DNA of 32,000 nt from Halomicronema hongdechloris C2206 (GCF_002075285.3 NZ_CP021983.2:2220001-2252000), one strand, 5' to 3'; positions 5,340 to 27,367 are shown, numbered from the stretch's first letter. Translations and numbers: made by a program. Notes: generated from the letters alone by a model not told the origin.

Positions 5340-6532
5340 GCCGTCGTTCATCGCCCCAGCGTAACCGTAGCCCCCGGGCTAAAGCTGCGATCGCAGCTTA
5401 CATCGCTGACATTGACTCAACGAACTCGGCAGGTTCAGCTAGTAACTTGCCGAGTTTTGTCGTGCAGCAACTCCGTCAGGCCTTACTAAGTTGGTATGCC
5501 CACCAGGGGCGAGATTTACCCTGGCGTCATAGTCGAGATCCCTACGCCATTTGGATCTCAGAGATCATGTTGCAGCAAACCCAGGTAACCACCGTCATCC
5601 CCTACTACCGGCGCTGGTTGCAACGCTTCCCCAATGTCGATAGCCTAGCTGCCGCAGATCTACAAGATGTGCTAAAAACCTGGGAAGGGTTGGGCTACTA
5701 TGCCCGTGCCCGCAACCTGCATCGCGCCGCCCAAACCATTGGGCAGCAACACGGTGGGCGATTTCCCCAGCAATTCGACCAAGCCCTGGCCCTGTCCGGC
5801 ATTGGCCGCACCACCGCCGGTGGCATTCTCAGCGCCGCCTTTAATCAGCCCTGGCCCATCCTAGATGGCAACGTCAAACGGGTATTGACTCGCCTCATCG
5901 CCCTAGACTGTCCCCCCAGCCAAGCCCTGCCAGAGCTATGGGACCTATCTACCACGCTGCTGTCACCCACTCAGCCCCGCGACTTCAACCAAGCTTTGAT
6001 GGATCTCGGCGCCACCCTCTGCACCCGCCGCCATCCCAATTGTCAGCAATGCCCTTGGCAACCATACTGTCGAGCGTACAATCTGAATGTACAGTCGGAG
6101 TTGCCCATGTCAGAAGCTCGTGGTCCCTTACCCCATAAACACATCGGCGTCGCTGTCATCTGGAACGATCAGCAGCAAATCCTCATCGACCGGCGTCGGC
6201 CGCAGGGGCTGCTGGGGGGACTCTGGGAATTTCCAGGCGGCAAAATCGAGGCCGGTGAAACGGTGGAAGCTTGCATCCAGCGGGAGGTGCAAGAGGAACT
6301 GGGCATTCATGTGGAAGTGGGGAAGCAACTCACCACGGTGGATCATGCCTACAGCCATTTCAAAGTCACCCTCAACGTCTACCACTGCCGCCATCGGCAA
6401 GGGGAGCCGCAACCGCTAGAATGCGATGAAATTCGCTGGGTTACTCTAGAGGAAATCAGCCAGTTTCCCTTTCCCAAGGCCAACCTGCAAATTATCGCAG
6501 CATTGCAGCAGGCTCACCACCTGCCGACTTAA
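5336..6532 (+). CDS. mutY: A/G-specific adenine DNA glycosylase MutY with a C-terminal Nudix domain
   Basis: PWR..RDPY.IW.SEIMLQQTQV, LGYYARARNLH, an HhH-GPD region, and the 4Fe-4S cluster loop CTRRHPNCQQCPWQPYC. The C-terminal domain has GLWEFPGGK. The start (GTG 5336) is uncertain. Confidence 0.9.
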   Translation: MSRRSSPQRNRSPRAKAAIAAYIADIDSTNSAGSASNLPSFVVQQLRQALLSWYAHQGRDLPWRHSRDPYAIWISEIMLQQTQVTTVIPYYRRWLQRFPNVDSLAAADLQDVLKTWEGLGYYARARNLHRAAQTIGQQHGGRFPQQFDQALALSGIGRTTAGGILSAAFNQPWPILDGNVKRVLTRLIALDCPPSQALPELWDLSTTLLSPTQPRDFNQALMDLGATLCTRRHPNCQQCPWQPYCRAYNLNVQSELPMSEARGPLPHKHIGVAVIWNDQQQILIDRRRPQGLLGGLWEFPGGKIEAGETVEACIQREVQEELGIHVEVGKQLTTVDHAYSHFKVTLNVYHCRHRQGEPQPLECDEIRWVTLEEISQFPFPKANLQIIAALQQAHHLPT

Positions 6533-6610: not shown

Positions 6611-7702
6611 GTGGCCAGGGTTAGGTTAGAAGGGATTACCCAACGGTTTGGAACCGCGACTGCCATCCAAGATATTACCCTCGCCATACCGGATGGCGAG
6701 TTTTGGGTACTAGTGGGTCCCTCCGGTTGCGGTAAATCTACGATCCTGAGAACTATTGCTGGCCTAGAGCCTGTGCAGGAAGGGCGTCTTTACATCGGCG
6801 ATACCCTGGTTAACCAGATCCGAGCCCGTCAGCGGGATGTGGCCATGGTGTTCCAGAATTATGCCCTGTATCCCCATATGACCGTGGCTGAAAACCTAGC
6901 CTTTGGCCTGCGCATGCGCCATAGGCCTATTCACGAACGTCAGGAGCAGGTGCATAAAATTGCCCGGTCTCTAGATATTGCCCATCTGCTAGATCGAAAG
7001 CCCAGGAAGCTTTCCGGCGGCCAGCAGCAGCGGGTAGCCCTAGGGCGGGCCATCGTCCGCAAACCCCAGGTTTTTCTCCTAGACGAGCCCCTATCTAACC
7101 TAGATGCCCAATTGCGAGATGATACCCGAGCTGAACTGAAGCAACTGCATCGGACCTTTGGCATCACCACCATCTACGTCACCCACGACCAAGTCGAAGC
7201 CATGACCCTAGCCGACCAAATCGTGGTGCTTCATCAGGGGCGTATTCAACAGATTGCCACCCCCCAAGCCGTCTATGCCCATCCAGCTAATTGCATGGTG
7301 GCTGCTTTCATGGGCAGTCCCCCGATGAATCTCCTAGAAGCCACCGTTGAAGCCAATGGCTTAAGGATCGATGGTCAGCGGGTTCCCCTTCCAGCTCTCG
7401 ACAGCCAGTCGACTGTCTCGGTGGGGCAACGAGTGATTGTCGGCCTACGGCCAGAACATCTACAGGTGAGTAGCGAATCCCAGGCAAGCTTAGGGGTCAC
7501 GGTGACTGTCGTCGAACCCCTAGGCCGTGAAACCCTGGTGCGCACCGTGCTACCCGATGCCCATCGTACCTTGCCCCAGTCGCTAAATTTACAGGTCTCC
7601 GGTAAGCTGTTACCGCAACCGGGGGAGCGGCTATGGGTGCAGTTAGACCCCGCTGAGATCTTTCTCTTCGATCCCATTACTGGCAATCCAGTGCAGCCTT
7701 GA
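6611..7702 (+). CDS. ABC transporter ATP-binding protein, MalK/UgpC-like (carbohydrate-type importer ATPase)
   Basis: Walker A GPSGCGKST, Q-loop, signature LSGGQQQRV, Walker B FLLDEPLSNLD, H-loop TH, and a C-terminal TOBE-like regulatory domain. Confidence 0.9.
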   Translation: MARVRLEGITQRFGTATAIQDITLAIPDGEFWVLVGPSGCGKSTILRTIAGLEPVQEGRLYIGDTLVNQIRARQRDVAMVFQNYALYPHMTVAENLAFGLRMRHRPIHERQEQVHKIARSLDIAHLLDRKPRKLSGGQQQRVALGRAIVRKPQVFLLDEPLSNLDAQLRDDTRAELKQLHRTFGITTIYVTHDQVEAMTLADQIVVLHQGRIQQIATPQAVYAHPANCMVAAFMGSPPMNLLEATVEANGLRIDGQRVPLPALDSQSTVSVGQRVIVGLRPEHLQVSSESQASLGVTVTVVEPLGRETLVRTVLPDAHRTLPQSLNLQVSGKLLPQPGERLWVQLDPAEIFLFDPITGNPVQP

Positions 7703-14136: not shown

Positions 14137-15126
14137 ATGTCGCGCCTGCAGCTAGAGCGGTTACTCAAAATTGATGCCCTGATCCGTCGTCCTCAGAGGC
14201 AGACGGCGCTGACGCTGGCAGCAGAACTGGAAGTGAGTGAGCGCACCATTCGCGATGACTTAGCCTTTCTGCGAGATCGCTTTCACGCTCCCCTAAAGTT
14301 CACTCGCAATCAGGGGCATCACTACACCGATGCCGAGTGGCGGCTGCCGACGGTGCCGTTGACCAAGGGCGAACTGTTTGCCCTCACCCTGGGGGCCAGG
14401 ATGCTGGAGGCCTATGCCGGGTCGACCTATGCGGTGGAGTTGCGATCGGCGGTGAATCGATTGGCGGAGCGCTTACCGGAGCAGGAGTGGCTGGATCTGC
14501 AACAGCTGGCCGATGATCGGTTGATCTTTCGTTCTGGGGCGGAGAGCAACCTCGACCTGGAGATCTGGCAGCAGCTGGAGGATGCTTGCCGGGACTCGCG
14601 GCAGGTATGGATGCGCTATTACACCGCCAGTCGGGATGATGTCTCGGAGCGGCAGCTGGATCCCTATCTGTTGCATATCTATCGGGGCACTAATCCCTAT
14701 GTGATTGGCTGGTGCCATCGTCGCCAGGGGATCCGCTGGTTTCGGGTGGATCGGATTCAGGCGCTGCGGTTACTGGAATCTCACTTTGAGCGGCGGCCTG
14801 ATTTCAATGCCCGGGAACATCTGGAGTCGATTTTTCAGCATGAGGTGGGGGGCACACCAGTGACGGTGCGGATTTGGTTTGCTGCCCAGGTGGCGCCCTA
14901 TGTGCGGGAGCGGCGCTGGCATCGCAGCCAGGTGTTGCAGGAGCATCCGGATGGGGCGGTGACGCTGCAGATGACGGTAGGAGGGCTGAATGATGTGAAG
15001 CGGTGGGTGTTGGGCTATGGGCAGGGGGCCAGGGTGCTGGCCCCGCCGGAGTTGGTGATGATGGTGGTGAAGGAAGTGGAACGGATGAACTATAATTACT
15101 CAAATTCTTTTGGAGGTGAGAGCTGA
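14137..15126 (+). CDS. WYL-domain transcriptional regulator (N-terminal wHTH, WYL, C-terminal WCX-like); CRISPR-associated by position
   Basis: HTH region LAAELEVSERTIRDDLAFLR. WYL-domain core R.LDPY.L.......YVIGWCH.R...R.FRVDRI. The stop overlaps the cas6 start (TGATG). Confidence 0.85.
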   Translation: MSRLQLERLLKIDALIRRPQRQTALTLAAELEVSERTIRDDLAFLRDRFHAPLKFTRNQGHHYTDAEWRLPTVPLTKGELFALTLGARMLEAYAGSTYAVELRSAVNRLAERLPEQEWLDLQQLADDRLIFRSGAESNLDLEIWQQLEDACRDSRQVWMRYYTASRDDVSERQLDPYLLHIYRGTNPYVIGWCHRRQGIRWFRVDRIQALRLLESHFERRPDFNAREHLESIFQHEVGGTPVTVRIWFAAQVAPYVRERRWHRSQVLQEHPDGAVTLQMTVGGLNDVKRWVLGYGQGARVLAPPELVMMVVKEVERMNYNYSNSFGGES

Positions 15127-15800
15127 TGCTAGCGAGCGACCGGCAGAAGACGACAAGTGAATTGATGGCAAAACCATTTGTGGAGTTGAGTTTTGGGGTG
15201 CTTGGAGAAACATTGCCTGCGGATCATGGATATGGGTTATATAGCGCGATCGCGCATCTCTGCCCTGACATCCACGAACAAGAAGGATTGAGCATTCTTA
15301 CCATTCCAGGCGAACCGGATCGCCAGGGAAAAATTCACCTTAGCCAGTCTTCTCATCTCAAAATTCGCTTACCTTACGAGCCCGCAAGGTTGGCTTTGGT
15401 GCTGCCATTAGCAGGGCAAACGCTGACCATTGGTAAGCATTCAATCCAGCTCACAATTCCTCAGATCCATCCTTTAAGACCTGTCGATAAGCTGCGATCA
15501 CGCATCGTCACCATCAAAAAGTTTCAAGATCCTGAGCCTTTCAAAGAAGCAGCCCAGCGCCAGTTAGATGCTTTGGGCATTCAAGGAAATCTAATTTTGC
15601 CGTTGAATGAGGAAGGAGAACCCAGTCGTAAGGCCATCAAGATCAAAACCTATTTTGTAGTTGGCTTCAGCTTGATCGTGACTGACCTCAACGAAGAAGA
15701 CTCGCTCAAGCTGCAACAACATGGACTAGGCGGCAAGCACCGCATGGGTTGTGGAATTTTTACACCCTTCCCTCGTGCCTGGAGGTTCTATGATTCCTGA
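15126..15800 (+). CDS. cas6: Cas6-family crRNA endoribonuclease (Cmx6-like, type I-MYXAN-type)
   Basis: About 220 aa. Glycine-rich C-terminal loop GLGGKHRMGCGIF typical of Cas6/RAMP proteins. It is the first gene of the cas operon. An alternative start lies at 15165. Confidence 0.75.
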   Translation: MLASDRQKTTSELMAKPFVELSFGVLGETLPADHGYGLYSAIAHLCPDIHEQEGLSILTIPGEPDRQGKIHLSQSSHLKIRLPYEPARLALVLPLAGQTLTIGKHSIQLTIPQIHPLRPVDKLRSRIVTIKKFQDPEPFKEAAQRQLDALGIQGNLILPLNEEGEPSRKAIKIKTYFVVGFSLIVTDLNEEDSLKLQQHGLGGKHRMGCGIFTPFPRAWRFYDS

Positions 15801-18198
15801 ACTTCCTGATCAACTACTAGCCAAAAGTCCAAGACCTGGCAGAAAGCCTGTCACTCTGGAAGAACACCTGCAAGATACTGCTGTCTGTGCCGCCCAAATC
15901 TTTCGCTTGAATGGACGGTGGGGACAAAACTGGTGCCGTTTCTTTCAAATCTCGACAGCCGAAGAGCAGTTTCTTCTGAATCTTCAAGTGGCAGCGCTGT
16001 TCCATGATTTGGGCAAAGCAAATGAAGACTTTTATGCTGCTGTCTCTCAGCCAGGATTTACGCAGCAAACGATCCGCCATGAACATCTCAGTGCATTAAT
16101 GCTGTGCTTGCCAGAGGTGCGTAACTGGCTGTCACAGGATTCCAGATTAGATGCGAACATTATTACAGCAGCAGTTTTGTCCCATCACCTCAAAGCCTTT
16201 GATGATTCAACATCTGTCAAAGACAAGGAAAGAAGTGAACGAATTAAGAACTACCGTTGGGGGCACGTTCAAACTCTCAAACAGTCGGTTGTGCTATATC
16301 TTCAGCATGAAGAGGTTACAGCAACTCTGCAACGAATTGTAGACTTAACTGATCTACAAGAAATTCCCAGTCTCCCCAAAACAGCCTGGAGACCGGCATC
16401 AGAGTGGGAGCAGGCTTGGAGAAAAGGGAAAAAACAATTCGCTCCTTCTTTTAAGCGGGATTTACGAAAAAATACTCAGCGGCGATCGCTCTTAATAGCT
16501 GTCAAAGCTGGCTTAATTTTGTCGGATGCTGCTGCCTCTGGTCTAGTGCGCGAGGGGTATGACATTTCTGACTGGATTGAGGCGATTGTCCATTCCGAGG
16601 CGATCGCTGCTAACGAAATCTCTGAGAAGATTCTGCTCCCTTGGATTCAGCAAATTGAGCAACGTACTAAGAAACCGTTTAAGTTCCACGCTTTTCAGGA
16701 ACAAGCGGCTGAGCAGGGAAAGAAAGCCTTGCTGCTAGTGGCTTGTGGGGGTGGCAAAACCCTGGCGGCTTGGAAATGGGCAGAGCAGCAGACCCAAAAA
16801 TACAACATCGGTAAAGTAATTTTTCTGTATCCCACTAGGGGAACTGCTACTGAGGGATTTCGGGATTATGTGGGCTGGGCACCGGAAGCGGATGCTGCAT
16901 TAGTGACAGGTACCGCTAAATATGAACTGGAAGCAATGGCGGAGAATCCCAGTGAGTCCATCGCCGACAAAGTCTTCCGCACCGAAGCCGATGAGCGGCT
17001 TTATGCTTTGAGCTTTTGGTCAAAGCGGTTCTTTAGCGCCACCGTTGACCAGTTTCTCAGCTTTATGGAGCACAGCTATCAGAGCTTATGTTTGCTGCCT
17101 GTTCTAGCCGATAGCGCGGTCATTATCGACGAAGTACACAGCTTTGACCGCTCTATGTTCGATATCTTGATCAGCTTTTTGAATACGTTCCATATTCCAG
17201 TGCTCTGTATGACCGCGACCTTGCCCCAATCTAGGCGAGATGAGCTGGTCAAAGCAGGATTGAAGGTTTTTCCGACAGCCACTGATCGCGCCAGTGAGGC
17301 ACTAGCAGATTTGAAGGAACTCGAACAGGCTGATCGCTATTGGTTAGAGCCTGTGGCTGATTTCAGTGTGGCCTTTGACAAAGCGGTAACTGCTTACCAA
17401 GCAGGGCTGCGGGTTTTGTGGGTCGTGAATACCGTTGATCGCTGCCTAGCGATCGCTCAAAAACTGGAAGCAGTCTTGGACGGGGGTGTGCTGACCTATC
17501 ACAGCCGCTTTCGTCTACGCGATCGCCAGAAAGTTCATGCAAACACAGTAAAAGCCTTCTCATTCTCTGAGGGAGATGTGCCTAAACGGGCAATCGCGGT
17601 CACAACCCAGGTTTGCGAAATGAGCTTGGATCTGGATGCCGATGTTTTGATTACCGAAATTGCCCCGGTGTCTTCTCTAGTGCAGCGCTTTGGGCGTGCC
17701 AATCGACATCTAAAACGCTCTTTTGCAACTCTGCATCCCTACATGCCACCGGCCAATCTGCCGTATCAAAGGAATGACCTGGAAACCGCAAATGCGTTTC
17801 TGGAAAGCTTTGAGACTGAGCTAGTCAGTCAACTGCAACTGGCAACGGCCCTAGAAATCTATGCCCGACCTGAGCGGGATGCCGATGGGAGTAGTTCATT
17901 CCTGAACAGTGGCTACTACGCCGTGCCCGGTTCCTTTCGAGATACGGATGAGTTCGCAATTCCCTGCATTCTGGATTCTGACTTGGATGCCATTGAGTCA
18001 TTGGTCAAAGATCGCCAACCCTACGACGGGTTCATTGTGAATGTCCCGCATAAATGGGCAAAAGCCTGGTTAGAAGATGGCAATCCGCGACCTGAGTGGT
18101 TGCCGAAGTACCTGAACGTGGTGAGCGGTGCCGCAGACCGATACCAAGTAAATCGAGGATTTATCACCAAATCACCAGAGGAGGTGGAACTTGGATAA
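15790..18198 (+). CDS. cas3: Cas3 nuclease-helicase (N-terminal HD domain fused to an SF2 helicase)
   Basis: HD motifs FHDLGKA, RHEHLS, LSHHLK. Helicase motif I ACGGGKTLAA, motif II IIDEVHSF, motif III MTATLP, motif VI QRFGRANR. ATG 15790 is preceded by GGAGG and overlaps the cas6 end. Confidence 0.95.
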   Translation: MIPELPDQLLAKSPRPGRKPVTLEEHLQDTAVCAAQIFRLNGRWGQNWCRFFQISTAEEQFLLNLQVAALFHDLGKANEDFYAAVSQPGFTQQTIRHEHLSALMLCLPEVRNWLSQDSRLDANIITAAVLSHHLKAFDDSTSVKDKERSERIKNYRWGHVQTLKQSVVLYLQHEEVTATLQRIVDLTDLQEIPSLPKTAWRPASEWEQAWRKGKKQFAPSFKRDLRKNTQRRSLLIAVKAGLILSDAAASGLVREGYDISDWIEAIVHSEAIAANEISEKILLPWIQQIEQRTKKPFKFHAFQEQAAEQGKKALLLVACGGGKTLAAWKWAEQQTQKYNIGKVIFLYPTRGTATEGFRDYVGWAPEADAALVTGTAKYELEAMAENPSESIADKVFRTEADERLYALSFWSKRFFSATVDQFLSFMEHSYQSLCLLPVLADSAVIIDEVHSFDRSMFDILISFLNTFHIPVLCMTATLPQSRRDELVKAGLKVFPTATDRASEALADLKELEQADRYWLEPVADFSVAFDKAVTAYQAGLRVLWVVNTVDRCLAIAQKLEAVLDGGVLTYHSRFRLRDRQKVHANTVKAFSFSEGDVPKRAIAVTTQVCEMSLDLDADVLITEIAPVSSLVQRFGRANRHLKRSFATLHPYMPPANLPYQRNDLETANAFLESFETELVSQLQLATALEIYARPERDADGSSSFLNSGYYAVPGSFRDTDEFAIPCILDSDLDAIESLVKDRQPYDGFIVNVPHKWAKAWLEDGNPRPEWLPKYLNVVSGAADRYQVNRGFITKSPEEVELG

Positions 18199-18202
18199 CG
18201 TC

Positions 18203-20876
<2,674 letters not shown>

Positions 20877-20905
20877 TTTATAAAAACTTTCTTTGAGGTT
20901 ACATC

Positions 20906-21784
20906 ATGCATAAAAATCTTTTCGCTACTGTTCTAACGTATCCGGCTCCCAGTTCAAACTACCGGGGAGAAAGTGAAGAAAACCGCACCGTACTACAAAA
21001 AATCGCTAAAGGACGACAAGAATACACGGTCATCAGTCCAGAATCCATGCGGAATGCTCTGCGGGAGATGCTGCAAAAGACTGGCATACCTTGTAATCGA
21101 TCTCGGCTACAGGACGAAGACCAACTCGCTGTAGAGTTTAAAGAATTTCCCAATGCAGAAAAATATGCTGATGACTTTCTATTTGGTTTTTTAGTCGCTG
21201 ACAAAGAGGCGATCAAAAAGAACAAGGGGCTACCAGCTAAGCGTGATAGCGTGCTTCGGATGAATATGGCAGTTGCTCTAACGCCTTACCGGTTTGATGC
21301 AACTTTCCATCAATCTCCACTCAATGCAGGTAATAGTCCCTGGAAAAATTCATCTACGTCTGCTCTCTTACATCGCGAAGTCGCTCATACGGCCTACCAG
21401 TATCCCTTTGCATTGGCCTATTCAGATTGTAAAGCCAAGCCGGAATGGACAAAGGCACTATTGCAAGCGATTTCCCAGCTCTCTGATGTAGCTGGAGGTC
21501 ATGCCCGCAGCTACTACGAAATGGCTCCTAAGAGCATCGTGGCTCGTTTGACCCCTAGTCTGATTGCCGGATTCGATACCTACGGATTTGATGAGCAAGG
21601 CAAGTTTTCAGAGCTTGCCCGCATCCATGACAATGACCTACCTGCGGATGAGTTTTGGATTGGTGGAGAACTTTCTCGAAATATGGATGAAACCCGCAAG
21701 GAGGAATTAGCTCAGGTCGGAGTCAAGTTTTACGACAACCCGCAAACACTGCTTGCCGACCTAGCTGAAGAGTTTTTGAAATAG
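20906..21784 (+). CDS. cas7: Cas7 backbone subunit (RAMP)
   Basis: N-terminal pattern VLTYPAPSSNYRGESE ... VISPESMRNALRE parallels the Cas7 LNRDD ... ISSQSLKRA.R motif. GAGG lies before the ATG. Gene order is cas8-cas7-cas5. Confidence 0.85.
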   Translation: MHKNLFATVLTYPAPSSNYRGESEENRTVLQKIAKGRQEYTVISPESMRNALREMLQKTGIPCNRSRLQDEDQLAVEFKEFPNAEKYADDFLFGFLVADKEAIKKNKGLPAKRDSVLRMNMAVALTPYRFDATFHQSPLNAGNSPWKNSSTSALLHREVAHTAYQYPFALAYSDCKAKPEWTKALLQAISQLSDVAGGHARSYYEMAPKSIVARLTPSLIAGFDTYGFDEQGKFSELARIHDNDLPADEFWIGGELSRNMDETRKEELAQVGVKFYDNPQTLLADLAEEFLK

Positions 21785-21796
21785 GAGGCCACCTAT

Positions 21797-22537
21797 ATGG
21801 ATAATCTTTGGCTACGGATTCGAGCCCCTTTTGCGGCATTCCGAGGCTTTCAAGCTGGAGTTTACCGAGCAACGGCTCCTGTTATGCCACCCTCAGCAGC
21901 TTTTGGTCTAGTACTGAATCTGGCCGGAATTGAGATGCGGGATAGCAAGCAGGAACCAACGACTTTAATTCGACAGGATCTACCGTGTTTGCGTTTAGCG
22001 ATCGGAGTTCCTAACAAACAATTACCTAATGGTGAAGCAGTTCCTGAAACCGAGAGTGAAGTCTGTTCTCTGTACCAACAATTGCACAGCTATCCTGTCG
22101 GCAGTTCAGGCAAAGAACTCAGGAAGCGAACGCATGGTGCTAAGTATTGGATTGTGCCAGTGCGTCGAGAATTTCTAGTCGGCTTTGACATCATGCTGGG
22201 GATTCAGACGCAAGCATCCGATCTTCTGGAGAAGGTCATTCAAGGGTTACGGGGTGACTTCAATGAATCTCGTTACGGTCTTCCATTTGCCGGAGATAAC
22301 AACTTTCTGTTTGACCGTATTGATGTTGTCGATTCTCCCCCTCCTACACTTTGGTATGTTCAGATGCAACCGGATGATCCACCTTTGCGGGGGTCGTACC
22401 GACTGACGGTTGGGATTGATCGCGCTGACAACAGTAAAACGACTAGCCATCTCTATGCTCCGCTAGAGGAGGCAATCACTGAACCACCTGAACTAGCATG
22501 GACATGGACACCTAAAGAGCCAGTACGAGCCGCATAA
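21797..22537 (+). CDS. cas5: Cas5 subunit (RAMP; DevS/Cmx5-like)
   Basis: The N-terminus LWLRIRAPFAAFRGFQAGVYRATAPVMPPSAAFGLVLNLAGIE is the canonical Cas5 N-terminal motif. AGGAGG precedes the ATG. Confidence 0.85.
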   Translation: MDNLWLRIRAPFAAFRGFQAGVYRATAPVMPPSAAFGLVLNLAGIEMRDSKQEPTTLIRQDLPCLRLAIGVPNKQLPNGEAVPETESEVCSLYQQLHSYPVGSSGKELRKRTHGAKYWIVPVRREFLVGFDIMLGIQTQASDLLEKVIQGLRGDFNESRYGLPFAGDNNFLFDRIDVVDSPPPTLWYVQMQPDDPPLRGSYRLTVGIDRADNSKTTSHLYAPLEEAITEPPELAWTWTPKEPVRAA

Positions 22538-22789
<252 letters not shown>

Positions 22790-22895
22790 ACCATTAGCTG
22801 AGAAGAAAGCCAGGAAAACGAGGCGATCTTCTAAGAAAAGCTGACTAACAGTCATTCGAGTTTGAACCTTGAAAACTGAATACTATGTCAATTCG

Positions 22896-22932
22896 CATAG
22901 AAACCACCGATGCCGTTAGGCGTTTTTCTTTT
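22896..22932 (+). repeat. Solitary degenerate CRISPR repeat (psiR3) with its hairpin followed by a T-tract; candidate terminator or Cas6 site between the interference and adaptation modules
   Basis: CATAGAAACCACCGATGCCGTTAGGCGTTTTTCTT matches the consensus at 22/35 (20/24 in the core). The stem arms are kept and the loop is GTTA. The 3' handle is replaced by TTTTTCTTTT. It shares its deviations from consensus with psiR2. Confidence 0.6.
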
Positions 22933-23100
22933 CCTAATACATGTGAATTGGCGATCGGATGATCTTTAGAGATCCTACCGAGATGGCAACATCTTGGAGT
23001 CAAAAAATAGCGATTATTACGGAATCATCTACCCTGTAATAAAATTGCCGACTTCTGTAGTCATAGTTGGAGTATCCACACGCAGTTGGGAGATCCAATC

Positions 23101-24768
23101 ATGACTACATCTCTGATTAAACCAGCCATAAACTCTCGAGACACGATTCGAGTCAATGCTCTCCACGCTCTAGCCTACTGTCCCCGCCTGTACTACTTGG
23201 AAGACGTGGAAGAACTCTATACCCAAGATGCAGCCGTCTTTGCGGGGCGTCGCCTACATGTGGAACTAGAAAAGGGGGAAGACGAAGAGTGGGTTCATCT
23301 GGTGCTAGAGAGTGCCGACCTGGGTTTGCGGGGCAAGGTTGATGCCCTAAAAACTCGAAATCGTCAGACCATTCCCTACGAACACAAGCGAGGACGCTGC
23401 TATCGGGACAGAGACAACAAACCCCAGCCATGGCAGAGCGATCGCATCCAGATTCTGGCCTATGCCTGTCTGATTGAGGCGGCCCTAGGTATCACCGTTC
23501 CCGAGGGCCGTATTCGCTACCATGCCGATAATGTGTTGGTTCATGTTCTTCTAGACGATCAGGGGCGCCAGGAGGTTAGGGAAGCAGTCGCCCGTGCTTG
23601 GCAATTGCGCCAATCCACCCAGCGACCTCCCGTCACCTCTAATGAGCGGTTATGTGCCCGTTGCTCCCTGGCCCCTGTTTGTTTACCAGAGGAAACACGA
23701 CTGGTACAAGGGCAGTCACATCAGCCCAGACGCCTATTTCCAGAAGATGACGAGCGCAAAATCATCCATGTCACCGAGGCGGGTACCCGCATTAGTAAGA
23801 GCGGTGACCAATTCAAAATCACGAAGCGCGATGGTGACGCCACAGCTATTCCCTCTCGCCAGGTAGGGCAACTGGTGCTCCACAGCTATGCTCAGATCTC
23901 GACCCAGGCCATCTACTTCTGTGCCGACCAAGAGGTGGGCCTACACTTTATCTCAGGGGGTGGGCGATATCTGGGTAGCTTCGATACTCGCCAAGGGAGT
24001 ATTCAGCGGCGTATCCGACAGTATGAAGCCCTGACCCAGCCTGAGGTTTGTCTGAAATTAGCGCGTCAGCTGGTGGTCTGTCGAGGCCAGAGCCAGCGTA
24101 AGTTCCTGATGCGAGGGCAACGCAGTTTAGAGGTAGCCAATCATGCACTAGAACAGGCGATTGATCAGATGCAGCGGACCTTGAAACAAGTGCCCAAGGC
24201 AGAGTCCGCGACTTCGCTGCTGGGTCTGGAGGGTAATCTAGCCGCCCTTTACTTCGGAGCATTGCCCCACTTAATCGCTGAAAATGCGGTGGCTGACTTT
24301 CAGTTCGATGGCCGCAACCGTCGCCCTCCCAAGGATCGCATCAATGCCATGCTCAGCTTTGGCTATGCCCTGCTACTAAAAGATGTCATGAACGCGATTT
24401 TGACCGTCGGTCTAGAACCAGCTCTAGGCTTCTACCATCAGCCCCGCACCCAAGCTCCACCCCTGGCCCTTGATTTGATGGAGATCTTCAGAGTGCCGCT
24501 GGTGGACATGCCTGTGATGGCCTCGGTGAATCGGAATCAATGGGATATCGCCGATGATTTTATCCGTCGCGGTGAGCAGGTATGGCTCAGCGATTCAGGG
24601 CGCCGTAAGTTCATCAGCCTGTACGAGCGCCGCAAGGAGGAAAGCTGGAAGCACCCAGTCACCCACTATTCCCTGACCTATCGTCGTCTGATTGAGCTGG
24701 AGGTGCGCCTACTCGAAAAAGAATGGATGGACGAAGGCGGATTGTTTGCTCAGCTTGTGATTCGATGA
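23101..24768 (+). CDS. cas4-cas1: Cas4-Cas1 fusion protein (adaptation)
   Basis: The N-terminal Cas4/RecB nuclease has YCPRLYYL, GKVDAL...YEHKRG and CARCSLAPVC. The C-terminal Cas1 has LLGLEGNLAALYF, NAMLSFGYALL and PALGFYHQPR...LALDLMEIFR. GGGAG precedes ATG 23101. Confidence 0.95.
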   Translation: MTTSLIKPAINSRDTIRVNALHALAYCPRLYYLEDVEELYTQDAAVFAGRRLHVELEKGEDEEWVHLVLESADLGLRGKVDALKTRNRQTIPYEHKRGRCYRDRDNKPQPWQSDRIQILAYACLIEAALGITVPEGRIRYHADNVLVHVLLDDQGRQEVREAVARAWQLRQSTQRPPVTSNERLCARCSLAPVCLPEETRLVQGQSHQPRRLFPEDDERKIIHVTEAGTRISKSGDQFKITKRDGDATAIPSRQVGQLVLHSYAQISTQAIYFCADQEVGLHFISGGGRYLGSFDTRQGSIQRRIRQYEALTQPEVCLKLARQLVVCRGQSQRKFLMRGQRSLEVANHALEQAIDQMQRTLKQVPKAESATSLLGLEGNLAALYFGALPHLIAENAVADFQFDGRNRRPPKDRINAMLSFGYALLLKDVMNAILTVGLEPALGFYHQPRTQAPPLALDLMEIFRVPLVDMPVMASVNRNQWDIADDFIRRGEQVWLSDSGRRKFISLYERRKEESWKHPVTHYSLTYRRLIELEVRLLEKEWMDEGGLFAQLVIR

Positions 24769-24777
24769 GGCGAAACC

Positions 24778-25071
24778 ATGGCTGAGAGCAAGAACTACTA
24801 CCTCATCTGCTACGACATCCGCGATCCCAAGCGTTGGCGTAGGGCTTACAAGCTGCTGAAAGGCTATGGTGAAACGATTCAGTATTCCATCTTTCGAGTG
24901 CGGTTGAATCAGCGTGAGCGGGAACAACTGCGATGGAAGTTGGAGAAGATTCTCACGGAGGAGGATAGCTTGCTGATTGCGGGGCTCTGTCAACGTTGCG
25001 TTGAGCGTATTGAAGCCTGTAATCGTCCAGAGTCCTGGGAGGTCGAGCACGACATGCACCAGATTCTCTGA
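24778..25071 (+). CDS. cas2: Cas2
   Basis: 97 aa. YLICYDIRDPKRWRRAYKLLKGYGETIQYSIFRVRL is the canonical Cas2 N-terminal pattern. Confidence 0.95.
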   Translation: MAESKNYYLICYDIRDPKRWRRAYKLLKGYGETIQYSIFRVRLNQREREQLRWKLEKILTEEDSLLIAGLCQRCVERIEACNRPESWEVEHDMHQIL

Positions 25072-25319
25072 TGCAAGGATCTCTGATTGTCGAGAAGTAT
25101 CCGGCTGCTCGTGTCCTCAGAGCCCTGTTCAGGTCGGTCATTATGGCCGGTTGATTGATGTTTGAGGTGCTTGCAGGAGGCAAAAGCCTTATGAAATGGA
25201 CTTTCTGAACGATACGCAGTCGGATAAAATAGACAGTAAGGTTTAGCGATCTAAAGATCATGGTCTACCTTGCAAAACCAGTTGGGAGCGCTTGTGTAGT
25301 CAGGGTTTTCGAGGTCGCA
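25072..25319 (+). promoter_or_regulatory. CRISPR leader
   Basis: Non-coding stretch between cas2 and the first repeat. The degenerate repeats lie at the opposite end of the array, which places the leader here. Confidence 0.65.
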
Positions 25320-27367
25320 CCGCCAAACCTCTGATGCCGCAAGGCGTTGAGCACGTTGAGGGCGCATCAGTCAAAACTGATCGAGGTCGCCGCCAAACCT
25401 CTGATGCCGCAAGGCGTTGAGCACCGAAGCCGCTAAACAGGGTACTGCAACGGGTATCCAGCCGCCAAACCTCTGATGCCGCAAGGCGTTGAGCACAGTT
25501 TTGGTCACGGTCCAGGGTACTGGCCCAGCCCCGCCAAACCTCTGATGCCGCAAGGCGTTGAGCACTCCATCCAGTTCCCCTTCTCTGGCAATGCCAGCCT
25601 CCGCCAAACCTCTGATGCCGCAAGGCGTTGAGCACGGGATGGTCGTCAGGGTGATGATAGCACCAATCCAGATCCGCCAAACCTCTGATGCCGCAAGGCG
25701 TTGAGCACGGGGGCAGTGTCCCGGGACGTTCTACGACATAAGGGCCGCCAAACCTCTGATGCCGCAAGGCGTTGAGCACATATAGCGCAATTCGATCGGG
25801 CGCTTCTTCGAGGCCGCCAAACCTCTGATGCCGCAAGGCGTTGAGCACTCTTTCAACTCCGATCGGATTTCGGGCTTCAACCTACCGCCAAACCTCTGAT
25901 GCCGCAAGGCGTTGAGCACTCCGTGCCAGCAAAAGAAATTGTCACATTTCTGTCCGCCGCCAAACCTCTGATGCCGCAAGGCGTTGAGCACTTTATCTCC
26001 TTGTCTAGGTTCTGTTGAGCCCCCTGAGACCGCCAAACCTCTGATGCCGCAAGGCGTTGAGCACTTTTCCCCCACCGCCTCCGCCTCCACCCCCTCCACC
26101 TCCGCCAAACCTCTGATGCCGCAAGGCGTTGAGCACATGTCCCGATTAACTCAGTGGCTACGTCGCCACCTGCCGCCAAACCTCTGATGCCGCAAGGCGT
26201 TGAGCACCGTGTGTTTTCCGTGGTTGATGGCGTAGGGCAGCCCCGCCAAACCTCTGATGCCGCAAGGCGTTGAGCACCCCTGCGTTCTCAAGCTATCCTG
26301 TTCTTTTTTGCGGCCGCCAAACCTCTGATGCCGCAAGGCGTTGAGCACCCATCGTAGGCATCCCGAGAAATGTCCTTAGACGACTCCACCGCCAAACCTC
26401 TGATGCCGCAAGGCGTTGAGCACATATAGCGCAATTCGATCGGGCGCTTCTTCGAGGCCGCCAAACCTCTGATGCCGCAAGGCGTTGAGCACTCTTTCAA
26501 CTCCGATCGGATTTCGGGCTTCAACCTACCGCCAAACCTCTGATGCCGCAAGGCGTTGAGCACTCCGTGCCAGCAAAAGAAATTGTCACATTTCTGTCCG
26601 CCGCCAAACCTCTGATGCCGCAAGGCGTTGAGCACTTTATCTCCTTGTCTAGGTTCTGTTGAGCCCCCTGAGACCGCCAAACCTCTGATGCCGCAAGGCG
26701 TTGAGCACGAAATTACTGTGAAAGACACAGAGGGAAAGTCCTATACCGCCAAACCTCTGATGCCGCAAGGCGTTGAGCACGACAATCGGCCTCTGCACGT
26801 TCAGTGGCGGTGGCACCCGCCAAACCTCTGATGCCGCAAGGCGTTGAGCACATGCTTTTCTCGTGGACCGTAAACGCTAGGCCCAACCGCCAAACCTCTG
26901 ATGCCGCAAGGCGTTGAGCACAATCAGTAATGCCCAATTGTTCACTACCTCTTGGGTCCGCCAAACCTCTGATGCCGCAAGGCGTTGAGCACGCACGGAT
27001 GGTACTGCGATCGCCCGAAACACTGGGCCCGCCAAACCTCTGATGCCGCAAGGCGTTGAGCACTGAGAACTTCATCGTACCAATGTTTCTTAGTCATCCC
27101 GCCAAACCTCTGATGCCGCAAGGCGTTGAGCACTAGTCCTCATCCACGTACCACTCAGGGGCGCACGTACCGCCAAACCTCTGATGCCGCAAGGCGTTGA
27201 GCACCTCCCGGGCGAGAACAGCGCGTCTACTGTTTTCTGCCGCCAAACCTCTGATGCCGCAAGGCTTTGAGCACGAAGAACAATTCAAAATTCAAAACTC
27301 AAAACTCATCGCCAAACCTCTGTTCGCGAAGCGTTGCCGCAGGCAATAGCCGCAAGGGCTTGATCAC
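25320..27367 (+). CRISPR. CRISPR array: 28 intact 35-nt repeats plus a decayed terminal repeat; 28 spacers of 34-40 nt, 24 of them unique
   Basis: Repeat CCGCCAAACCTCTGATGCCGCAAGGCGTTGAGCAC begins at 25320, 25390, 25462 ... 27240. Repeat 28 carries G to T at 27266. The last copy (27310-27367) is split and degenerate. The stem GATGCC/GGCGTT with a GCAA loop needs G.U pairs, so it forms only in the + strand transcript. Confidence 0.98.

Follow-up and report, generated by a model that had tools for sequence, protein, structure and literature searches.

In Halomicronema hongdechloris C2206, a stretch of 32,000 nucleotides (GCF_002075285.3, NZ_CP021983.2:2220001-2252000; hereafter the window) carries a type I-MYXAN CRISPR-Cas locus whose components are all encoded on the + strand. 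A truncated lone copy of the CRISPR repeat, termed psiR3, lies in the intergenic gap between the genes of the interference complex Cascade and the cas4-cas1 fusion gene of the adaptation module. psiR3 is a real, conserved solitary repeat derivative, specific in strand and position, and it represents a family rather than a one-off scar. This lone half-repeat is found at ~80% of such Cascade/adaptation seams in a widespread cyanobacterial lineage. The reading that we favour, with a probability of about 0.5 on the basis of sequence comparison, is that psiR3 acts as a Cas6-recognised boundary hairpin on the RNA of the Cascade operon, being terminator-like in this genome. The element, its parts and the array used for comparison are the following.

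22790-23100, + strand: 311-bp intergenic gap holding psiR3 (this length is correct if cas4-cas1 starts at the ATG at 23101).
22896-22930, + strand: psiR3, a truncated lone repeat copy that reads CATAGAAACCACCGATGCCGTTAGGCGTTTTTCTT.
22901-22924, + strand: core of psiR3, with the 5' flank AAACCACC followed by the hairpin GATGCC-GTTA-GGCGTT (hairpin 22909-22924).
22923-22932, + strand: T-tract TTTTTCTTTT, in place of the GAGCAC of the repeat, which is part of the 5' handle of the CRISPR RNA (crRNA).
25320-27274, + strand: CRISPR array of 28 repeats with repeat CCGCCAAACCTCTGATGCCGCAAGGCGTTGAGCAC, the reference for the repeat sequence.

Read directly, psiR3 matches the array repeat at 22 of 35 positions and at 20 of 24 over AAACC..GGCGTT. 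Reading and alignment confirmed these values, given by a first-pass annotation of the window, together with its description of two intact stem arms (GATGCC/GGCGTT), a GTTA loop and a 3' handle replaced by TTTTTCTTTT. The identity of 22/35 is weak when taken alone, being reached by the best match in 52 of 300 dinucleotide shuffles of the non-array window. The 16-nt stem-loop core is a different matter: at a match of at least 14/16, 0.02 occurrences are expected per window, and outside the array two sites are found, 18827 (psiR2, described below) and 22909 (psiR3), both on the + strand and in cas intergenic gaps. The motif GATGCCNNNNGGCGTT (GATGCC-N4-GGCGTT) occurs 31 times in the 5.58-Mb genome, namely 27 times in the array, in psiR2, in psiR3 and at two unrelated sites. 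psiR3 scores 39.6 bits against CM R1, while its match to the Rfam family CRISPR-DR33 is weak (21.9 bits). Core match, genome-wide rarity of the motif and CM R1 score show that psiR3 is derived from a CRISPR repeat and is not a chance match. It has the same strand as the array and the cas genes.

The conservation of psiR3 was assessed in GTDB genomes encoding relatives of the window Cas4-Cas1 protein. A homologue at E <=1e-200 (63-82% identity) is present in 71 of 401 sampled cyanobacterial genomes, from which 46 distinct loci (numbered with the prefix L) were kept after removal of duplicates, each with at least 300 nt of upstream sequence. The strict pattern [AG]ATGCC-N4-GGC is found upstream of cas4-cas1 on the + strand in 23 of these loci and on the opposite strand in none. 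A position-specific scoring matrix made from 22 copies detects a + strand copy at most 1.5 kb upstream of cas4-cas1 in 26/46 loci. These copies score 23-40, and nothing on the opposite strand exceeds 13; one additional copy with a 1-nt insertion (L282) raises the count to 27/46. Comparison of the intergenic region in related genomes, a check suggested in the first-pass annotation, thus found the hairpin conserved in 26-27 of the 46 loci. The placement at the junction of the interference and adaptation modules, also claimed there, is a conserved position: psiR3 occurs in 24 of the 30 loci that have a same-strand cas5 upstream of cas4-cas1 and in 3 of the 16 that do not, and it starts 13-156 nt past the cas5 stop codon. 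Matches to the hairpin motif inside the cas4-cas1 coding sequence are limited to three, scattered, non-homologous and at chance level.

The placement is the same behind two Cascade gene sets whose Cas5 proteins are only ~22% identical. The window has a Cas5 of the Cmx5/DevS type, 76-79% identical to those of L016 and L276, where psiR3 follows cas5 by 69 and 14 nt, respectively, and 67% identical to that of L279. The second set, of 'cyanobacterial' type, is found in L018, L019, L275, L278 and others. When the window (15126-22537) was compared with L001/L003/L004/L006 and with L013/L016/L276, the two sets had ~22% (Cas5), ~33% (Cas7) and ~28% (Cas3) identity, and the adaptation modules 72-82%. 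The window Cascade set is nearer to those of L016, L276, L279 and the Acidobacteriota locus L013 (55-76%).

A conservation profile of the 22 homologous copies gives the consensus AACCTC(A/T) GATGCC GTYA GGCG N T followed by a T-rich or pyrimidine-rich tail, and information content falls sharply right after GGCG. The stem GATGCC/GGCG is that of the cognate repeat. What has been kept, a 7-nt flank AACCNCN and GATGCC-N4-GGCG, corresponds to the future 3' handle of the crRNA, while the 8-nt part giving the 5' handle is lost. The arrays of all these loci, and those of Acidobacteriota loci, have repeats with the same invariant stem and with differing loops. Within psiR3 the inner pairs U.G, G-C, C-G and C-G are retained in 20-22 of the 22 copies and the outer A-U pair in 9 only, and no compensatory change was found at any pair. 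The loops are variable (GTCA, GTTA, GTCT, GTCC, TTTA, ATGA, CTCA, AGCA and others). An invariant stem with variable loops over 22 homologous copies agrees with the earlier proposal of selection on a Cas6-type hairpin, for which the loops GCAA, TCT, GTAA and GTTA had been read correctly. Because the stem sequence is constrained without covariation, a sequence-reading protein is favoured: the constraint appears to bear on sequence and not merely on structure, as would be predicted for a Cas6 that reads sequence and not for a structure-only terminator.

The family has marks of its own, an A before the stem (CCTCA) and the loop GTYA, with a pyrimidine at loop position 3 where arrays have A. Because these marks differ from the arrays, the family is best read as an old lineage that was not re-copied repeatedly from them. 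They also bear on the kinship of psiR2 and psiR3 that had been drawn from shared deviations. AACCAC before GATGCCGT is indeed common to both elements, but it does not show mutual descent: genuine repeats of an array (L001) have AACCAC too, as do psiR copies elsewhere, and the psiR3 family has the signature just described. The junction copies of L288 (~67 nt upstream of cas4-cas1) and L282 (~780 nt upstream) read GTTGAACA, compared with GTTGAGCAC for the array repeat; they keep more of the repeat 3' end and are less truncated than the rest of the family.

In the window, the psiR3 hairpin is predicted to fold with -7.1 kcal/mol, compared with -7.7 for the array repeat. Its 6-bp stem followed by U5CU4 has the layout of an intrinsic terminator, though a weak one by usual standards, and a terminator scan lists it with the tail TTTCTTTTCC. 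psiR3 might be nothing else than an ordinary Rho-independent terminator of the Cascade operon, descended from a repeat and without a role for Cas6. The hairpin with U5CU4 lies 119 nt past the last stop codon, the upstream AGAAA can pair with the U-tract, and T-enrichment after the stem is a trait of the family (mean T fraction of 0.50 over 10 nt; at least 4 T in the 6 nt after GGCG in 13/22 copies). A constraint on structure alone should, however, permit compensatory changes, which the 22 copies do not have. Nine of the 22 are without a T-run, and in ten copies that were folded the nine relatives of the window element reached -3.6 to -5.8 kcal/mol, mostly with stems of 3-4 bp. The number of candidates returned by the terminator scan in the region, 8 against 6.6 expected, is at chance level, and several copies lie 37-92 nt before cas4-cas1, which leaves little room for a new promoter. 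We consider a terminator without Cas6 unlikely; the terminator suggested by the first-pass annotation fits the hairpin and U-tract of the window, but it does not appear to extend to the family, given the weak hairpins of the relatives and the copies lacking a T-run.

The copies closest to cas4-cas1 (37-92 nt before its start) are those of seven compact loci, L287, L292, L295, L296, L297, L008 and L281. In four of these loci the 6 nt after GGCG contain no more than 2 T; the number is 3 in L008 and 4 in L297, and L281 has a T5 run. This short spacing, with few T in four loci, points to an intercistronic processing site rather than only a terminator. It looks like the Cas6-type hairpin is the common denominator of the family and the U-tract an addition where the adaptation genes have their own promoter.

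The favoured reading, a boundary hairpin recognised by Cas6, would work as follows. In the transcript, psiR3 would form the 3' untranslated end of the cmx8-cas7-cas5(-orf81) mRNA. The Cas6 of the locus itself (Cmx6) would bind the hairpin and probably cut at its 3' base, the expected position being GGCG|TT if an 8-nt 5' handle TTGAGCAC is assumed. In the window the U-tract that follows the hairpin would additionally make psiR3 terminator-like. By either route the Cascade message would acquire a defined, protein-capped 3' end, and cas4-cas1-cas2 would then be uncoupled and expressed from the conserved region just downstream. Among the functions offered by the first-pass annotation, a Cas6 site and a terminator are those that fit best, while a pure scar is made unlikely by conservation across many cyanobacterial families.

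A wider role is a tentative possibility, in which Cas6 would be an mRNA-processing factor of its own operon that cuts the long transcript of the locus into pieces stabilised separately. The cas4/1-cas2 message would be bracketed by psiR3 and the first repeat of the array, and the Cascade message by psiR2 and psiR3. If true, the amount of interference proteins relative to adaptation proteins would depend on Cas6 and on competition by the crRNA precursor, and so would the uptake of spacers. More generally, if Cas6 cuts or caps the RNA at psiR3, the relative expression of interference and spacer-acquisition genes would be under a control that is independent of guides, and the element would be a natural system in which the insulation of transcripts by Cas6 could be tested simply. 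If psiR3 is only a terminator or a relic, its use does not go beyond that of a practical rule for annotating these loci.

Several points weigh against a Cas6-recognised boundary hairpin. Without covariation in the 22 copies, RNA structure is not provable from the sequences. The cut position given above is assumed for type I-MYXAN by analogy with other type I systems. About 20% of the cas5/cas4-cas1 junctions are without psiR3. The loci are relatives and the counts overstate their independence, even though strand bias and position are unambiguous despite this kinship. A further conserved motif upstream of the hairpin, block A, stands at a fixed distance in many loci and is not explained by the boundary-hairpin model.

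psiR3 could also be an inert relic: an older array may have left its last repeat or its leader-repeat junction at this place, or the exchange of effector cassettes may have left a recombination scar. Two unrelated Cascade sets are joined to homologous adaptation modules exactly at psiR3. Mobile genes cluster at this seam and insert around or into psiR3, with members of the Uma2 family in L001, L002/3 and L008 and the antitoxin-like open reading frame (ORF) orf81 in the window, and block A resembles the leader motif ACCTTGCAAAAC (11/12). Against decay speaks the maintenance of an invariant stem with free loops across many families in which other intergenic sequence is unalignable, and the strand specificity of psiR3 is strict. 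The leader-relic idea was rejected, despite the 11/12 match of block A, after an nhmmer profile of 15 leaders gave no match upstream of psiR3, only the repeat part matching. An inert relic is accordingly judged quite unlikely. The seam itself is, by sequence comparison, a place of exchange, because two Cascade cassettes meet the same adaptation module at psiR3. In L001 the hairpin (5987-6030 and 6703-6740) is split by a ~700-bp insertion carrying a Uma2-family gene, and 15 nt, CCTCAGATGCCGTCT, are duplicated at both sides of the insertion. In L002/L003 the Uma2 gene comes after psiR3 and before cas4-cas1, and in L008 it lies upstream of psiR3.

An element read at the DNA level was also considered, either a docking site for the Cas4/1-Cas2 integrase or a patch of homology between psiR2 and psiR3 for cassette swap. 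The two elements, which have 21/23 core bases in common and the same orientation, stand on either side of the Cascade cassette, and equivalent elements are found to enclose cassettes of two types. Conservation is, however, missing from the repeat ends, which are what the integrase reads; a length of 23 bp is marginal for homologous recombination and the evidence is purely circumstantial. A DNA-level function is judged highly improbable.

A positive control for guide RNAs is available in the same locus, 4 kb upstream of psiR3, in the gap between cas3 and cmx8.

18757-18848, + strand: degenerate mini-array psiR1 - pseudo-spacer - psiR2, of the CreR/CreA type.

psiR1 ends with a perfect GCGTTGAGCAC and is followed by a pseudo-spacer of 30 nt (TGAGCCGCGCGGTAT...) and then by psiR2. 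The target of the pseudo-spacer, ATG|TGAGCGGCGCGATAT, is at 18907-18921, with mismatches at positions 6 and 12, just downstream of the promoter-like TTGGCA-N16/18-TAGTAT. Equivalent mini-arrays in L001, L003 and L004 have different spacers, each matching its own nearby ATG-flanked site, so that spacer and target covary among the four loci. ATG is thus the probable protospacer adjacent motif (PAM) of the window Cascade. The mini-array and its target span 18757-18921 in the window, 1900-2110 in L001, 2030-2170 in L003 and 1940-2090 in L004.

psiR3 could likewise be the downstream repeat of a second CreR/CreA-type RNA, with a handle given by block A, a 19-nt guide and the T-tract as terminator, through which Cascade would repress a promoter. 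Cascade clearly uses such RNAs, as seen in the four loci with ATG-flanked targets of their own after cas3; psiR3 degenerates like psiR2 of the mini-arrays (e.g. GGCGAT in psiR2 of L004); and the end of block A, TTGAAAAC, is handle-like and has a fixed spacing to the hairpin. In the target searches, for which the mini-array spacer served as positive control and found its ATG-flanked target, psiR3 gave no ATG-flanked match in the window, searched with periodic mismatches from every possible spacer start. There was no ATG-flanked seed match in cis in 14 loci, and genome-wide an ATG followed by a 9-nt seed matched at two sites, both in long open frames, with ~2.7 expected by chance. No Cas6 hairpin (GATGCC..GGCG) precedes block A, which leaves no known route to a 5' handle, and psiR3 itself is without GAGCAC. 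The start of the putative guide, TGAATAC, is conserved instead of co-varying with a target, and no partner co-varies with it; the putative guide measures 16-20 nt in most loci, and 30 nt in L006 and L002/3. In six of the seven compact loci no block A was found, nor in L276 and L279, and the known creA with a single repeat retains the opposite half, that of the 5' handle (PMC8501985). The matches obtained are at chance level and none is comparable to the PAM-flanked targets of the mini-array. The guide-RNA reading was rejected on these grounds and is considered improbable.

Block A and the sequences between and around it and the hairpin have the following features.

22862-22876, + strand: block A, TTGAACCTTGAAAAC, a conserved motif that accompanies the hairpin and lies ~32 nt upstream of it.
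22877-22900, + strand: linker whose start, TGAATAC, is conserved and whose remainder is variable, with a small hairpin CTATGT..GCATAG in the window.
22887-22898, + strand: GTCAATTCGCAT, left arm of a predicted long-range stem enclosing psiR3, inside the left copy of a direct repeat.
22941-22952, + strand: ATGTGAATTGGC, right arm of the predicted long-range stem, inside the conserved block C (CTAATACATGTGAATTG).

Block A is near-identical in L016, L018, L019, L006, L002/3, L278, L280, L281, L283, L284 and L004, L281 being the one compact locus in which it is present. Most loci have it at a distance of 29-33 nt from the hairpin, L006 and L002/3 at 43 nt. Over its final 8 nt, block A agrees with the crRNA 5' handle TTGAGCAC at 6/8; no second Cas6-type hairpin was found within 100 nt of psiR3. 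In about half of the loci, block A with its flanks (22858-22880) might fold into a small A/U hairpin, AGUUUU-GAACCUUG-AAAACU, and in several loci it can also be read as a frame of five codons closed by TGA or TAA. A pairing between block A and the U-tract, perfect over 9 bp in L016 and suggestive in L019, is absent in most loci and was not retained. A scan of metagenome and viral contigs for the block A pattern was swamped by chance matches and returned no locus with the hairpin.

Folding of the region 22880-22956, compared with shuffled controls as had been suggested, predicts -22.8 kcal/mol (z of -4.08), with none of 200 shuffles as stable. The long-range stem that encloses psiR3 is strong in the window, but RNAalifold did not recover it on four homologues and it was not kept as a conserved feature. 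The direct repeat described on both sides of psiR3 (22879-22896 and 22936-22952) reads as stated, but its significance is marginal, the score being reached by 36/2000 shuffles, and its copies are also mutually complementary. The flanking segments are better described, from the predicted fold, as a complementary pair able to pair around psiR3 in this genome. The use of the direct repeat as guide and target was rejected: one copy has an indel relative to the other, the spacing of their mismatches is 5 nt and not 6, and they do not co-vary in L006, L018, L019 and L016.

Downstream of psiR3, the window-like loci have a conserved 190-nt region that includes the following elements.

22953-22964, + strand: GATC-N4-GATC palindrome (GATCGGATGATC; AGATCA-N3-TGATCT in relatives), conserved in the window, L006, L018 and L019, possibly an operator or a small hairpin.
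23007-23100, + strand: region conserved in an alignment of five loci, with AATAAAAT, CTTCTGTAGTCATAGTTGG (23052-23070) and a ribosome-binding site; presumed promoter and 5' untranslated region of the adaptation genes.

CTTCTGTAGTCATAGTTGG is a near-invariant block in the five loci; it and the palindrome are probably operator and promoter elements of the adaptation genes. The segment 23007-23083 aligns with the last ~80 nt of the leader (25243-25323) as TAGCGAT..TCTACC.TG.AA.AA..CTT.TGTAGTCA.., with a score of 40 compared with 28 +/- 4.6 for shuffles, 6 of 300 of which reach it. This likeness to the leader upstream of cas4-cas1 might come from a promoter or regulator site common to both, or from a duplication.

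The remaining genes and elements of the locus are arranged in the window as follows.

14137-15126, + strand: WYL/HTH-like gene.
15126-15800, + strand: cas6/cmx6.
15751-18198, + strand: cas3.
Between the mini-array gap and cmx8, + strand: ORF of 85 amino acids.
About 19200-20876, + strand: cmx8.
20906-21784, + strand: cas7.
21797-22537, + strand: cas5 (Cmx5/DevS type, NCBIfam TIGR02586), the last Cascade gene.
22544-22789, + strand: orf81, antitoxin-like ORF of 81 amino acids between cas5 and psiR3.
23101-24768, + strand: cas4-cas1 fusion gene (NCBIfam TIGR03983 and TIGR00372).
24778-25071, + strand: cas2.
Between cas2 and the array, + strand: CRISPR leader.

In the relatives psiR3 follows directly the cas5 stop codon, where the window has orf81. 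A family search with orf81 gave no match. Its product is 73-80% identical to that of an ORF which, in L001 and L004, is followed by a ParE toxin gene situated between cas7 and cas5. ParE-linked relatives of orf81 are found at 4783-5291 in L001 and 5696-6025 in L006; in the window the ParE partner is missing and the antitoxin-like gene is placed after cas5 instead. The array contains an exact internal duplication of 300 bp, with four spacers and their repeats (25745-26044 and 26389-26688).

Intrinsic terminators have in common with psiR3 of the window a G+C-containing hairpin followed by a U-tract downstream of an operon. They differ in that the psiR3 stem is short and weak, that its sequence and not its pairing is conserved, and that many homologues are without the U-tract. 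Another analogy is offered by engineered Cas6/Csy4 hairpin insulators placed between cistrons, which were reportedly built by Qi, Haurwitz, Arkin and colleagues in 2012. As proposed here for psiR3, an intergenic hairpin of the Cas6 family is cut, the cistrons are separated and the 3' end is capped by protein. These insulators are synthetic, while a role of psiR3 as their natural equivalent is only inferred; we know of no natural Cas6-hairpin insulator described inside a cas operon. If the favoured reading is true, psiR3 would be the natural counterpart of the synthetic Csy4 insulators, conserved in a cyanobacterial CRISPR-Cas lineage.

To our knowledge, the repeat-derived elements of cas loci have so far been known as guides: CreR/CreA, scaRNA and the tracr-derived autoregulator. 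CreR elements were reported for types I-B, I-E and V-A and noted for I-C, I-D, I-F and I-U. Like psiR3, CreR and CreA are degenerate repeats inside cas operons (Liu et al. 2023, bioRxiv 10.1101/2023.03.10.532045; Cheng et al. 2021, PMC8501985). Their downstream repeat keeps the Cas6 hairpin or 3' handle, a terminator often comes after it, and the mini-array 4 kb upstream in the locus is a genuine example. They need, however, a repeat that supplies the 5' handle and a pseudo-spacer with a PAM-flanked match in a promoter, neither of which was found for psiR3, and the one-repeat creA keeps the other half of the repeat (PMC8501985).

Solitary repeats of phages act as RNA anti-CRISPRs, or Racr (Camara-Wilpert et al. 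2023, PMC10651486). They resemble psiR3 as lone repeat-like RNAs expected to bind Cas6 or other Cas proteins without guiding, but they are viral products that inhibit immunity. The window element has a chromosomal place inside the cas operon and is vertically conserved, being inherited with the locus across families rather than carried by a virus or mobile element.

Single repeat-like units in cas loci are known to be enriched near cas3, cas8 and cas6, with no function assigned (bioRxiv 10.1101/2023.03.03.530964); type I-MYXAN, cas4 and a site upstream of cas1 are not mentioned in that work. These solitary repeat units are, like psiR3, single sequences resembling the cognate repeat and conserved in long intergenic regions of cas loci. 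The reported units are near-identical full repeats, whereas psiR3 is the 3'-handle half, positioned at the cas5/cas4-cas1 junction, and no description of a conserved half-repeat at an effector/adaptation junction was found in the literature search.

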